A model generated the notes under the pieces. That model saw nothing but the letters and a program-made list of their open reading frames with translations. It was not told where the DNA came from and did not search any database. Shown one piece after another: positions 6,596 to 31,017 of a stretch of 32,000 nt of DNA. Position 1 is the first letter of the stretch; each line of letters starts with the position of its first letter. The translations under genes were made by a program, and so were the position numbers. Origin of the DNA: Candidatus Saganbacteria bacterium (GTDB lineage Bacteria; Margulisbacteria; WOR-1; JAKLHX01); NCBI GenBank assembly GCA_026387835.1, contig JAPLKZ010000005.1, forward strand, positions 1 through 32,000. The letters run 5' to 3'.

Positions 6596-6634
6596 ATATC
6601 GGACGCATTTCTCGGAAATTTCACGCAATTTTCA
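6596..6634 (-). promoter_or_regulatory. ECF-sigma-like promoter motif (site D): TGAAAATTGC-GTGAAAT-N16-CGATAT
   Basis: The minus strand reads atGAAAATTgcgTGAAATttccgagaaatgcgtcCGATATgct, 142 nt upstream of the 804 aa gene start. Confidence 0.45.
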
Positions 6635-6729
6635 TTTCAGGCCCGGATCAGTTTAATAGCAACAGGATTATTATGTGACTGAGATCTAGAAAAACAAAAA
6701 GCGCATTTTACCTCGGTCAAACGCCGTTC

Positions 6730-6738
6730 TGTTATAAT
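6730..6738 (+). promoter_or_regulatory. Possible extended -10 (TGTTATAAT) for miaB
   Basis: tgttataat lies 55 nt upstream of the ATG at 6794. There is no convincing -35. Confidence 0.3.
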
Positions 6739-6793
6739 TTGTTATGATTACGGAAGATCATGTTTGGCGTAACGGGATTCATATCCGGAAAGC

Positions 6794-8002
6794 ATGCATG
6801 TGAGAAAATATCTCATAAAAACCTACGGTTGCCAGATGAATGAAAATGATTCCGAGATCATTGCGGGCATCCTCGAAAAGAACGGTCTTGTTAAGGCTTC
6901 AGATATTAAAGAGGCTGACATCGTGATCGCCAACACGTGCTCGGTCCGCGACGCGGCAGAGAGAAAAGCAGCCGGATTCATAAATACACTTATCAAGCTC
7001 AAAAAAGAAAAACCCGGCCTGCTTGTCGGGGTCGTGGGCTGCATGGCAGAGAGGCTGGGGGAGGAGCTGGTCAAAAAGTTCAAATTCGTTGATTTTGTTA
7101 TGGGGACAAGCGACTTCCGCAACTTCAAAGACACTTCCATAATCAAACGCGAGCCATCCGTAAATGCCTGGATCACGATAATGGAAGGCTGCGATAATTT
7201 CTGCTCGTTCTGTATCGTTCCTTACGTGAGAGGCAGGGAAAAGAGCAAACCCGTTGCGGATATATTGAAAGAGATCGATGAACTCGATAAAAATGTTTTT
7301 AAAGAAATAACACTTCTAGGCCAGAACGTGAACTCATACTCTTACGGTTTTCCGCATCTTCTGGACGCGGTCTCGAAGATCAATGGCATCAAAAGGATAA
7401 GGTTCATGACCTCCCATCCAAAGAATATGTCGGATGAGATAATCGAAGCGGTAAAAAATACCCCCAAAGTCTGCGAGAACTTCCATCTCCCGCTCCAGAG
7501 CGGGGACGATGAAATATTAAAAAGGATGAACAGGGGATATGACAGCGATTATTTCAGGAGGCTTGTCGAAAAAATAAGAAAAAAGATCACGGCATCAGCA
7601 ATTACTTCTGATGCGATAGCCGGTTTTCCGGGTGAGACGGATGAACAGTTCGAAAACACACTGCACTTGATATCGGAGCTGGAACTGGACGCGGTCAACA
7701 CGCTTGCTTATGATGTAAGGCCCGGCACAGCCGCGGAAAAGATGGAAGGAAGAGTGCCTCAGAAGATCGTCGATGAAAGGCTTCAGCAGCTTATAAAAGT
7801 TGTGGAAGAGACTTCATTCAAAAAGAACCAGTCTCTTGCCGGGTCAGTACAGGAGATCCTCGTAGAAAAAAAAGGCAAAGGCAGGACCAGGAGCCACAAA
7901 ATGGTAAAATATCCAAGTGAAGCGGATGAGACCGGAAAACTCATAAAAGTCAGAATAAAATCGGCAAAGTCGTGGGTGTTGCTAGGAGAGGTTGTAAGTT
8001 GA
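6794..8002 (+). CDS. miaB: tRNA-i6A37 methylthiotransferase MiaB (radical SAM)
   Basis: The N-terminal IKTYGCQMNENDSE is present, as is the radical-SAM CxxxCxxC motif in MEGCDNFCSFCIVPYVRG. A C-terminal TRAM-like domain follows. Confidence 0.9.
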   Translation: MHVRKYLIKTYGCQMNENDSEIIAGILEKNGLVKASDIKEADIVIANTCSVRDAAERKAAGFINTLIKLKKEKPGLLVGVVGCMAERLGEELVKKFKFVDFVMGTSDFRNFKDTSIIKREPSVNAWITIMEGCDNFCSFCIVPYVRGREKSKPVADILKEIDELDKNVFKEITLLGQNVNSYSYGFPHLLDAVSKINGIKRIRFMTSHPKNMSDEIIEAVKNTPKVCENFHLPLQSGDDEILKRMNRGYDSDYFRRLVEKIRKKITASAITSDAIAGFPGETDEQFENTLHLISELELDAVNTLAYDVRPGTAAEKMEGRVPQKIVDERLQQLIKVVEETSFKKNQSLAGSVQEILVEKKGKGRTRSHKMVKYPSEADETGKLIKVRIKSAKSWVLLGEVVS

Positions 8003-8029
8003 TATAATGAAACAAGCAAGGAGAAAATA

Positions 8030-29113: not shown

Positions 29114-29128
29114 GAATGATCCTCCTTT

Positions 29129-30025
29129 TTACTTTCCTTTTTCCGCTATTTTTCTGTTGCAACGCGCTATGAGATCGGCGCTTGCATTCGGCTGACTTTT
29201 TATTAACTCTAGAATGTAGATGTTATCGGCCACATTAAATAGCCGTTCAATAACGTCCCCTTCAAGATGATGGAAAAGTAATATTGCCTGTGCCCTATGC
29301 ACTCCTTCAATTGGCGCCTTAGCCCGTGGAAGTTTTAGGGCGATATCCAATAATACAGTTTGCGGAGTCTCGGGGTGCGCGGCTATGAGGCCCATCACTG
29401 CCTTGTCTTTACAAGTAGTATAGATCTGACTTATGTCTGCTCCGGACAGTCCCTCACTTAGTCTTTTAAAAGCGTTAGAATGGTCTTCCGGTGATTTTTC
29501 GATTATGCGCATCAATGCTTTCCTGTCGGCATTATCCGCAAAGGATAAGAGTGCCAGCATAGGGTCTCCGTCATTTAGGGACTCGACCACTGCCTGGATT
29601 TCACCAAAAGAAAGAGATGCTTTTACAGTGTTGAAAGCCATCACTCTACTTTGAAGGTCTATCCCGGGAAGCCGTATCATATGTATGCAAAACGCTTCAG
29701 GGATGATGCCGCCAGCAAAATAGACTTCAGCAATGGTGTTTAAATACACAAGCGCTTGGTTTCTTAGAACCTTTGGTATGCTCATGAGTTTTTCGACCGA
29801 TATTGTTCCTGATTCCATACGCCTTGCCAGCTGTTTGATAACTTTATTTTGCACATCCTGATCATCCGACATTGACAGCCGTCTCAACGTCCAATTATTG
29901 ATGAACGGGTCTTCCGCTTTTCTTACGTTTGATGAAAGCGGATTATGCACACCCAAGAACCTTCCGTGTCCGAACATGAACTTACCAAGCGTTGACTTAT
30001 AACCGTATCTGCTGACCGATAACAT
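29129..30025 (-). CDS. Paralog 2 of the tandem family (298 aa)
   Basis: It has the same conserved blocks as paralog 1. A 15 nt spacer containing an RBS separates neighbouring genes. Confidence 0.7.
   Translation of the reverse strand: MLSVSRYGYKSTLGKFMFGHGRFLGVHNPLSSNVRKAEDPFINNWTLRRLSMSDDQDVQNKVIKQLARRMESGTISVEKLMSIPKVLRNQALVYLNTIAEVYFAGGIIPEAFCIHMIRLPGIDLQSRVMAFNTVKASLSFGEIQAVVESLNDGDPMLALLSFADNADRKALMRIIEKSPEDHSNAFKRLSEGLSGADISQIYTTCKDKAVMGLIAAHPETPQTVLLDIALKLPRAKAPIEGVHRAQAILLFHHLEGDVIERLFNVADNIYILELIKSQPNASADLIARCNRKIAEKGK
29879..29994. repeat. 116 nt tract identical to 30797-30912 (paralog 2 vs paralog 3 N-terminal coding region)
   Basis: I compared the two tracts base by base and found 116/116 identical. 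The flanking sequence is clearly diverged. Confidence 0.9.
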
Positions 30026-30040
30026 AAATGATATTCCTTT

Positions 30041-30940
30041 TTACTTTCCTTTTTCCGCTATTCGTTTATCGCAACGCGCTTTGAGATCGGGACTCGCATT
30101 AGGCTGATCTTTTATTAACCCGAGAATATAAACACTATTGGCCGCGGCAAAAAGCTTTTCAAGGTTGACTTCCTGCACGTAATGGTAAGGCACTCTTGCC
30201 TGCGCCTTACGCATTCCTTCATCTGATGCTTTAGCCGGTTTATTTTTCAGGGCGATATCCCATAATATTGTAAGCGGAGTTTTGGGATGCGCGGCAATCT
30301 CGTCCATCACAAGAATGTCTTTGCAGATCCCAAAGATATAAGTTATATCTCCTTCGGATAATTTTCCACTTAACCTGTTAAAAGCGTTGGCGCAGTCTCT
30401 CGGGGATTTTTCGATTATTCGCATCAGTGTTTTTTTGCCGGCGAAATCCGCAAAGGATAAAAGCGCCAGCAAAGGGGATCCGCTGTCAAGGGACTCGACT
30501 ATTCCCAAGATCTCACTATCAGAAATTATTGATTTTATAGGATAGAAAGCCGCTTCTTTCCTTTGATGTTCTACCCGGGGATTCATCATTATAGATTTGC
30601 AGGCATCTTTAGGTACGATGCCGGCGGACAGATAGGGTTCGGCAATGGAAGTATCAGGCAAACTCATGAACGCCTGGTCCCTTATAGCTTTATGTACGGC
30701 CGTAAGCCTTTCAACGGATATTGTCCCGGACCCGATCCTCATCACAAGCTGATCCACAACTAAATTTCTCACGATCAGATCATCAGATCTTGATAACCGT
30801 CTCAACGTCCAATTATTGATGAACGGGTCTTCCGCTTTTCTTACGTTTGATGAAAGCGGATTATGCACACCCAAGAACCTTCCGTGTCCGAACATGAACT
30901 TACCAAGCGTTGCGGTATGGCCGTATTTACTGACCAACAT
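30041..30940 (-). CDS. Paralog 3 of the tandem family (299 aa), first gene of the operon
   Basis: It has the same conserved blocks. Its RBS is AAGGAG. Its C-terminus ...NASPDLKARCDKRIAEKGK parallels that of paralog 2. Confidence 0.7.
   Translation of the reverse strand: MLVSKYGHTATLGKFMFGHGRFLGVHNPLSSNVRKAEDPFINNWTLRRLSRSDDLIVRNLVVDQLVMRIGSGTISVERLTAVHKAIRDQAFMSLPDTSIAEPYLSAGIVPKDACKSIMMNPRVEHQRKEAAFYPIKSIISDSEILGIVESLDSGSPLLALLSFADFAGKKTLMRIIEKSPRDCANAFNRLSGKLSEGDITYIFGICKDILVMDEIAAHPKTPLTILWDIALKNKPAKASDEGMRKAQARVPYHYVQEVNLEKLFAAANSVYILGLIKDQPNASPDLKARCDKRIAEKGK
30797..30912. repeat. 116 nt tract identical to 29879-29994
   Basis: See the partner feature. The 27 nt immediately 5' in coding sense (gcgttgcggtatggccgtatttactga) is identical to paralog 1 instead. 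Confidence 0.9.
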
Positions 30941-30977
30941 AAGTGGTTCTCCTTTAATTCATTTATCTTGCAAATAG

Positions 30978-31017
30978 TTATCGGCATTATTTTATGTAAA
31001 TTTCACACATTTTTGAT
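30978..31017 (-). promoter_or_regulatory. ECF-sigma-like promoter motif (site B): CAAAAATGT-GTGAAAT-N16-CGATAA
   Basis: The minus strand reads tCAAAAATgtgTGAAATttacataaaataatgcCGATAActa. The -10-like element lies 37 nt upstream of the ATG at 30940. Confidence 0.45.

Follow-up and report, generated by a model that had tools for sequence, protein, structure and literature searches.

The primary sigma factor of Bacteroidota reads a phylum-specific promoter consensus, TTTG / TAnnTTTG, and the gene for a primary sigma factor can itself be expressed from promoters that serve alternative sigma factors, as at P-HS of Escherichia coli rpoD, which lies within dnaG and is read by sigma-32, and at P3 of the Bacillus subtilis sigA operon, which is read by sigma-H. 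Here we describe a bipartite promoter-like motif, TGAAAT-N16-CGAYAW, that invites comparison with both situations. It occurs in a 32-kb stretch of DNA from a Candidatus Saganbacteria genome (assembly GCA_026387835.1, contig JAPLKZ010000005.1, positions 1 to 32,000), hereafter the window, and recurs throughout the lineage to which this genome belongs. Saganbacteria and Margulisbacteria are uncultured, and no earlier description of the motif, or of transcription signals of Saganbacteria or Margulisbacteria, was found in the literature searched.

The closest described promoters are those of the sigma-28 family. E. coli sigma-28 has the consensus TAAAGTTT-n11-GCCGATAA, with GCCGACAT in the aer promoter, which is functional (PMC2859248). 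Of the WhiG factors of Actinomycetota, WhiG2 recognises T(A/C)AA-N16-GCCGATAA and WhiG1 recognises CTCA-N16-17-GCCGAACT; the central CGA of WhiG promoters is invariant, their -35 elements are clade-specific, and non-flagellar sigma-28 regulons are known (PMC12871210). As in the sigma-28 promoters of FliA, SigD, WhiG and Chlamydia, the -10 element of the Saganbacteria motif has CGA followed by TAA or TAT, with CGATA(A/T) in all sites of the clade, and the distance between the -35 and -10 elements is the same, whether written as TGAA-N16-nnCGATAA or as xAAAxTTT-N11-nnCGATAA / GAAATTTy-N11-nnCGATAA. We infer both the promoter function of the sites and the identity of their reader from sequence. 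The sites very probably constitute a class of promoters for an alternative sigma factor, and a sigma-28-type reader of that class is slightly favoured, because three features point that way: the spacing, the CGA core, which is invariant, and the TAA/TAT that follows it. On this proposal the sites would be read by a group-3 sigma factor whose specificity resembles that of sigma-28 (FliA/SigD/WhiG), save that its -35 preference is particular to the clade (TGAA for TAAA), and the class would drive a mixed set of mostly lineage-specific genes, together with rpoD in every clade genome examined.

Constraint and distribution of the motif

The pattern TGAAAT-N16-CGAYAW has exactly five matches in the window against 0.03 expected (100 dinucleotide-preserving shuffles, none of which gave five). 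A preliminary description of this DNA had reported five oriented, intergenic copies, and they are confirmed: sites D, G, C, A and B, in order along the window, all lie between genes, and each is oriented towards the adjoining gene. An A-rich upstream element, which the same description had assigned to sites A to D and to a degenerate sixth copy, site F, is likewise present there as AAAAWT 3 nucleotides (nt) 5' of TGAAAT, and hence in four of the five sites; it is absent from G. Beyond the core, the aligned window sites share (G/C)TGAAATTy and yCGAyAw, and wider flanks are not conserved. When two mismatches were allowed, the window gave 19 matches against 13.6 expected, revealing no degenerate members above chance. 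The housekeeping operons of the window are without the motif, and about 9 kb past its right end, on metagenome contig L007, hold only housekeeping genes and no further site. Near-identical strains, represented by twelve Logan metagenome contigs, have the same sites letter for letter, and are hence uninformative on conservation.

The constraint on the motif becomes visible in 552 kb of DNA from the Margulisiibacteriota/Saganbacteria lineage, here called the clade. The two boxes are paired at a spacing of 16 nt 87 times, at 15 nt once, at 17 nt twice and at none of the other lengths tested, where half-site frequencies predict 0.7 pairs per spacing. The 11-base core (TGAAAT-N16-CGATA) is found in 86 exact copies, against 0-4 copies of each of its 33 single-mismatch variants. 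Positions left unconstrained are conserved as well, namely a T-run after TGAAAT, an A-tract in the middle of the spacer and, past the -10 box, a tail of alternating A and T. Where the search pattern permitted either C or T after CGA, the base is T in 37 of 37 sites, and 76 of 86 sites carry A or T at motif position 27.

Start codons were placed relative to the motif at 69 sites, and the number of nucleotides between the -10 box and the first plausible start codon is bimodal. In 14 of them, including window site G, a start codon (13 ATG, 1 GTG) follows 6-10 nt after the box without a Shine-Dalgarno sequence; one site only falls in the interval of 11-14 nt, and in the remainder the start codon lies farther away, behind a strong GGAG-type Shine-Dalgarno sequence that starts soon after the -10 box. 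Since the leaderless class starts 6-10 nt past the box, as expected of a promoter, transcription would begin at about that distance, giving mRNAs that either are leaderless or have a short leader containing a strong Shine-Dalgarno sequence. The leaderless subclass would thereby offer a testable link between promoter and translation initiation. In the complete element an optional, UP-like AAAAWT would be placed 3 nt 5' of the -35 box, which has the form (G/C)TGAAATTt; a rigid spacer of 16 nt, with an A-tract at its centre, would lead to a -10 box, CGATA(A/T), followed by AT-rich sequence.

A GTDB-wide scan (185,579 species) with the extended motif AAAAWT-N3-TGAAATT-N15-CGAYAW gave at least 120 loci. 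At least 29 of these are labelled Margulisiibacteriota, Saganbacteria, WOR-1 or Marinamargulisbacteria, a lineage that makes up a tiny fraction of the species scanned, and about 12 more metagenome-assembled genomes (MAGs) without such a label were placed with them, several having two matches each. The preliminary description had proposed comparing intergenic with coding occurrence. Among the matches listed, 36 of 42 sites in the clade group are non-coding with a gene 10-110 nt downstream, whereas 53 of 79 sites in other taxa lie inside long open reading frames (ORFs). When the sites that had selected the sequence blocks were left out, the clade blocks (298 kb) held 14 further copies of TGAAAT-N16-CGATA against 0.14 expected, 12 of them in labelled MAGs and each of these with a gene start 11-190 nt away, whereas the blocks of other taxa (584 kb) held no further core copy. 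Across about 1.3 Mb of other taxa there is no core site except those chosen by the search pattern. Phage origin or use of the motif was also considered and set aside: the 13 IMG/VR matches are isolated, have no secondary sites and look like chance occurrences.

Loci chosen independently of the motif contain about one strict site in every 15-20 kb, from which at least 100 sites per genome can be extrapolated; with five sites in 32 kb, the window is denser than the clade average. As read from sequence, the motif is a clade-wide promoter class and not a local regulon. The regulon proposed in the preliminary description therefore survives in one part, a bipartite, oriented, non-canonical signal common to unrelated genes, and not in the other, a small regulon confined to this neighbourhood. 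The core could also serve as a binning marker, since a contig that carries it with the N16 spacing is very likely to come from the clade.

The rpoD junction and other genes behind the motif

At two loci of the scan (L129 and L059) the motif precedes rpoD, the canonical primary sigma gene. The rpoD loci of four more genomes, among them GCA_026387795.1 (L133, a Lake Pavin MAG, with an exact core) and a Margulisbacterium of 60% GC, all have TGAAAT-N16-CGATA where dnaG adjoins rpoD, with the Shine-Dalgarno sequence following 20-30 nt later. Metagenome contigs scanned with a lineage-specific RpoD N-terminus gave 80 loci. All nine that are at least 61% identical over the whole RpoD N-terminus (GC 37-55%) have the motif 11-48 nt upstream, eight as exact copies and one with a single mismatch, and all 71 more distant rpoD loci lack both the motif at rpoD and a core site anywhere. 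Absence of the motif from orthologous loci in related genomes would, by the preliminary description's own terms, have refuted it, but at rpoD the motif is conserved: it stands 11-48 nt before the gene in 15 of 15 clade genomes (six genome and nine metagenome loci; GC 37-60%) and ends at the clade boundary.

The arrangement resembles P-HS and P3 in that a promoter for a non-primary sigma factor would lie at the dnaG-rpoD junction or in the 3' end of dnaG, so that rpoD is transcribed apart from the upstream operon. It differs from them in sequence, the motif being neither sigma-32-like (CTTGAAA-N13-15-CCCCATNT) nor sigma-H-like. Both of these sigma factors were rejected as readers, as their -10 boxes (CCCCAT and GAAT, respectively) disagree with the motif and neither chaperone nor heat-shock genes were seen among the targets. 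Such a conserved rpoD promoter would imply a cascade of sigma factors with feedback on the primary one.

About 70 genes were located behind sites across the clade, of which about 40 were annotated. Most of these are orphans without a family match, several of them encoding proteins of >800 to >2,200 amino acids (aa). The named targets are rpoD, a type IV pilin (L049), which is the single motility-related target, two Com-type zinc-ribbon proteins in different genomes, a protein with an FGE-sulfatase domain, a GH16 glycosidase, a ferredoxin-domain protein, a PsbP-like lipoprotein and a ROK-family protein. Were the proposal correct, regulon members could be predicted directly from MAGs, and orphan and giant genes, the surface-fibre/PorV operon of the window, pilins and rpoD would come under one switch. 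Clade genomes in general (L027, L032, L128, L132 and L133) encode numerous orphan proteins of giant size, 1,700 to >2,250 aa, whose TPR matches are faint or absent; several are encoded directly behind the motif, and one (L133, 4941-11699, -) adjoins rpoD.

Candidate readers of the motif

Regions 2.4 and 4.2 of the clade RpoD are essentially identical to those of E. coli sigma-70, and canonical promoters coexist with the motif: sigma-70-type sites are enriched (52 against 21.2 expected) and include one before a tRNA cluster, and 11/12 matches to the consensus stand before other genes. RpoD was rejected as the reader on these two grounds, and a sigma factor other than RpoD must therefore read the motif. 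The parallel with Bacteroidota extends to a consensus that marks a phylum-level lineage and is missed by generic sigma-70 scans. There the primary sigma factor is divergent, whereas here RpoD is canonical and canonical promoters are found alongside, which indicates that the motif marks a second sigma factor.

Apart from the -10 element and the spacing, the motif shares with sigma-28 promoters a T-rich extension past the -35 core (AAAxTTT) and a high stringency. Site B, alone among the window sites, has the full GCCGATAA, and the CGAC of the -10 box of site A is like that of the functional E. coli aer sigma-28 promoter (PMC2859248). Margulisbacteria have been listed among the clades with FlgV, which is reported to be co-conserved with sigma-28, and among the phyla with flagellins.

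Several observations weigh against a sigma-28-type reader. The known non-flagellar sigma-28 regulons, those of Chlamydia and of Streptomyces WhiG, are small, and the class described here is large and includes rpoD. When the -35 elements are placed in register, the invariant G of TGAAAT falls where sigma-28 promoters have A/C or T, and the departure from TAAA is at its first base, where E. coli sigma-28 is intolerant of change (the aer213 mutant; PMC2859248). The GC that precedes CGA in sigma-28 promoters is not conserved, the two positions being G in 26 and C in 32 of 86 sites. No FliA/WhiG-type gene was found in about 0.55 Mb of clade DNA, sampled from many genomes, none of them whole; the only sigma genes seen there are rpoD and two divergent, long sigma-like ORFs. 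Among the approximately 40 annotated downstream genes (some 30 more were located only) there is no flagellar, chemotaxis or motor gene. Two points concern the sampling itself: clade labels are record titles, with unlabelled MAGs having been placed in the clade partly on the motif itself, and the genome-wide site counts are extrapolations. If a sigma-28-type factor nevertheless reads the class, sigma-28-like recognition chemistry may serve a large, non-flagellar use.

Alternatively, the reader would be no FliA/WhiG ortholog at all but a lineage-specific, group-3-like sigma factor, new or highly diverged, that acts as the clade's second general sigma factor, in which case the likeness of the -10 element to sigma-28 promoters would be convergent or very ancient. 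We regard this as unlikely. In its favour, the genes behind the motif are many, heterogeneous and non-flagellar, with rpoD among them in 15 of 15 genomes, the TGAAAT -35 box and the missing GC before CGA depart from the sigma-28 consensus, and canonical promoter prediction before marker genes is often incomplete in Margulisbacteria according to the ProFinder preprint. Against it, what the sigma-28 family conserves across phyla is just what the motif has: an invariant CGA, TAA/TAT after it and the same spacing (PMC12871210).

Unusual sigma-70-family proteins of 650-960 aa are present in the clade and also count in favour of this possibility (L017 1984-4266, -; L073 4093-6147, -; L233 3291-5624; L234 10001-12634). 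They combine C-terminal regions 3 and 4 with a conserved N-terminal extension of 400-500 aa and fall into no curated sigma subgroup. Motif-like sites, TGAAATTTTT...(A/T)GAyAA with an ATG 6-9 nt later, stand before the L017 and L233 orthologs; the C of CGA is missing from these sites, and the two orthologs may be weak targets of the class. As readers, however, the long proteins (L017, L073 and P0124-P0131) are unlikely. The eight members of the L017 family are 32-38% identical, and the L017 and L073 versions have different region 4.2 sequences, a divergence too great for an invariant motif. Moreover, the L234 genome encodes such a protein and has no core site in the 22.6 kb available there.

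A broader form of the idea, in which a non-FliA sigma factor and a near-invariant 11-base promoter make up a second general sigma regime that controls rpoD and at least 100 units per genome, is possible though on balance doubtful. If true, those units would be dominated by fast-evolving, lineage-specific orphan and giant proteins, many of them made from leaderless mRNAs, and would amount to a phylum-level developmental or lifestyle programme without a characterised counterpart, situated in Saganbacteria/Margulisiibacteriota, the sister group of Cyanobacteria. The cognate sigma factor could be found by correlating motif density with the presence of sigma genes across genomes.

The preliminary description had assigned the sites to an ECF (extracytoplasmic function, group 4) sigma factor of the SigW type, with an accessory-gene or envelope regulon. 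The Bacillus SigW consensus, TGAAAC-N16-CGTA, agrees with the motif at five of the six bases of the -35 box, in the length of the spacer and in a -10 element that begins with CG, and some of the targets, such as the fibre/TIG/PorV operon, the pilin and the lipoproteins, belong to the envelope or surface. The resemblance is superficial. The AAC and CGT hallmarks are absent, since TGAAAC-N16-CGATA occurs twice and TGAAAT-N16-CGTTA not at all against 86 exact copies of the core in the 552 kb, and the rigid N16 spacer and stringency that are typical of ECF promoters are shared by sigma-28 promoters. ECF sigma factors are typically autoregulated, with small and lineage-restricted regulons. No ECF sigma gene or recognisable anti-sigma gene was seen among the roughly 70 downstream genes (about 40 annotated; from the 0.55 Mb sample, which holds no whole genome), most targets are cytoplasmic or orphan proteins without a signal peptide, and a large, clade-wide class that spans 37-60% GC and drives rpoD is unlike such regulons. 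An ECF-type reader is thus improbable, and the sites are probably not ECF promoters; the -10 element and spacing fit the sigma-28/FliA-WhiG family better.

Recognition by the RpoD holoenzyme with the help of a clade-specific activator would also give a bipartite element, TGAAATTT then being a transcription-factor site over the -35 region and cGATAwAT a weak or extended -10 element. The gene rpoD is usually transcribed by its own holoenzyme, the motif is the conserved element before it, and the sequence past CGA is AT-rich, at times TATATA or TATAAT. The base equivalent to the critical -7 T of TATAAT is nevertheless mostly A and CGA is invariant, although sigma-70 -10 elements never need CGA; with TGAAAT unlike TTGACA, the motif does not correspond to the promoters that define group 1 sigma factors. 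Typical dimeric operator sites, furthermore, do not share the asymmetry and the rigid N16 spacer of the element, and the true sigma-70 consensus promoters of the window look wholly different. This explanation is very improbable. It is scarcely conceivable that the pattern is due to chance, or is the conserved, non-regulatory end of a repeat or mobile element: short AT-rich patterns do recur, with isolated matches in unrelated taxa and viral contigs, but the excess over expectation, both in the window and at N16 alone in clade DNA, the fixed position relative to start codons, the unconserved flanks and retention before rpoD from 37 to 60% GC all contradict it.

Window sites, canonical promoters and neighbouring genes

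Site D (6596-6632, -; exact match 6596-6623) consists of AAAATT (6632-6627), the -35 box TGAAAT (6623-6618), the 16-nt spacer and the -10 box CGATAT (6601-6596). It lies 141 nt upstream of the first gene of an operon (1850-6454, -) for proteins of 804 aa (4040-6454), 257 aa (3202-3975) and 451 aa (1850-3205). The 804-aa protein is secreted, repeat- and glycine-rich and fibre-like (Gly_rich_2, E 4e-10; weak match to the MAT-fibre N-terminus), the 257-aa protein has a TIG domain, and the 451-aa protein is an outer-membrane protein of the PorV/PorQ family (PorV_fam, 88.7 bits, below the cutoff of 90). Between site D and the ATG at 6454 stands a sigma-70-like promoter, TTTGCA-N16-(TG)TATAAT (6504-6531, -), with a 10/12 match and a TG extension. 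The operon therefore appears, from these sequences, to have two tandem promoters, site D and the sigma-70-like site nearer the ATG. An extra TGAAAT, without a matching -10 box, is found 16 nt upstream of the -35 box of site D (CTGAAATGAAAATTGCGTGAAAT, 6633-6640, -).

Site G (15392-15419, +), an exact match that reads TGAAAT-N16-CGATAT and has no upstream A-tract, precedes a gene (15429-16952, +) for a 507-aa protein with a class I SAM methyltransferase domain (Methyltransf_11, E 1.6e-10). Its -10 box is 9 nt from the methyltransferase ATG, and no Shine-Dalgarno sequence intervenes (15392-15431); a leaderless mRNA is predicted from this site. On the opposite strand, site G is overlapped by the longest ORF (13718-15412). 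In a near-identical strain contig, the corresponding DAGK gene is called about 36 nt shorter and, judged by that annotation, site G would lie in a 52-nt gap between divergent genes. The same region differs between window and strain in another respect. Strain contig L001 has 89 extra nt (9115-9203) relative to window 14451/14452, inside ORF 13718-15412, with flanks that are 100% identical; the window shows one 564-aa DAGK plus bestrophin-like ORF, whose place in the strain is taken by two distinct genes, one for 314 aa and one for 263 aa.

Site C (18231-18267, -; exact match 18231-18258), which comprises AAAAAT and TGAAAT-N16-CGATAA, stands upstream of a 417-aa orphan ORF (16973-18226, -) without a Pfam or NCBIfam match. 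Since the first ATG of this ORF is only 4 nt past the -10 box, its true start is probably at 18214 or 18190. Site A (27475-27511, -; exact match 27475-27502), with AAAATT and TGAAAT-N16-CGACAA, is 35 nt before an ATG, the Shine-Dalgarno sequence AAGGAG lying between. The operon behind it (24280-27439, -) encodes a 430-aa protein (26147-27439) that is clearly homologous to uronate isomerase of the BH0493 type (PDB 2q08, E 2.5e-111) and a 618-aa ABC-F ATPase (24280-26136).

Site B (30978-31014, -; exact match 30978-31005), with AAAAAT and TGAAAT-N16-(GC)CGATAA, is 37 nt before the first gene of an operon (27540-30940, -) for three paralogs of 299, 298 and 322 aa and a 202-aa protein. No members of the paralog family beyond these three were found among 5.8 billion proteins. 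All six independent metagenome contigs over the GATase gene (L007-L012) stop at about window position 30883, inside the gene at 30041-30940 and some 57 nt into this first paralog gene, which suggests an assembly break at a repeated N-terminus common to the three paralogs.

Near-consensus sigma-70 promoters had been reported at 22544-22632, and TTGACT-N17-TATAAT is indeed found there on both strands. They stand in a divergent cluster (22147-24259) that encodes a PAS histidine kinase and two single-domain response regulators, and on either side an 11/12 TTGACT-N17-TATAAT precedes the genes; the cluster may be a regulatory module, and no link between it and the motif was seen. Site F (18955-18983, +; TGGGAT/CGATGT) had been counted as a degenerate sixth member of the class, an assignment we abandon given its three mismatches to a core that tolerates almost none. 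The sequence is better explained as a canonical sigma-70 promoter, the region 18955-18988 (+) containing TTTACA-N16-TATAAT at 18961-18988 (11/12), which would serve the lipoprotein gene at 19013-19630. Upstream of this gene lies a tRNA-Gly/Cys/Val cluster (18371-18611). The 3'-terminal 17 nt of tRNA-Val (GAACCCAGTAACGCGCA, 18595-18611) recur exactly 214 nt downstream (18809-18825), just before the lipoprotein gene, and the repeat looks like the att-site scar of an integrated element.

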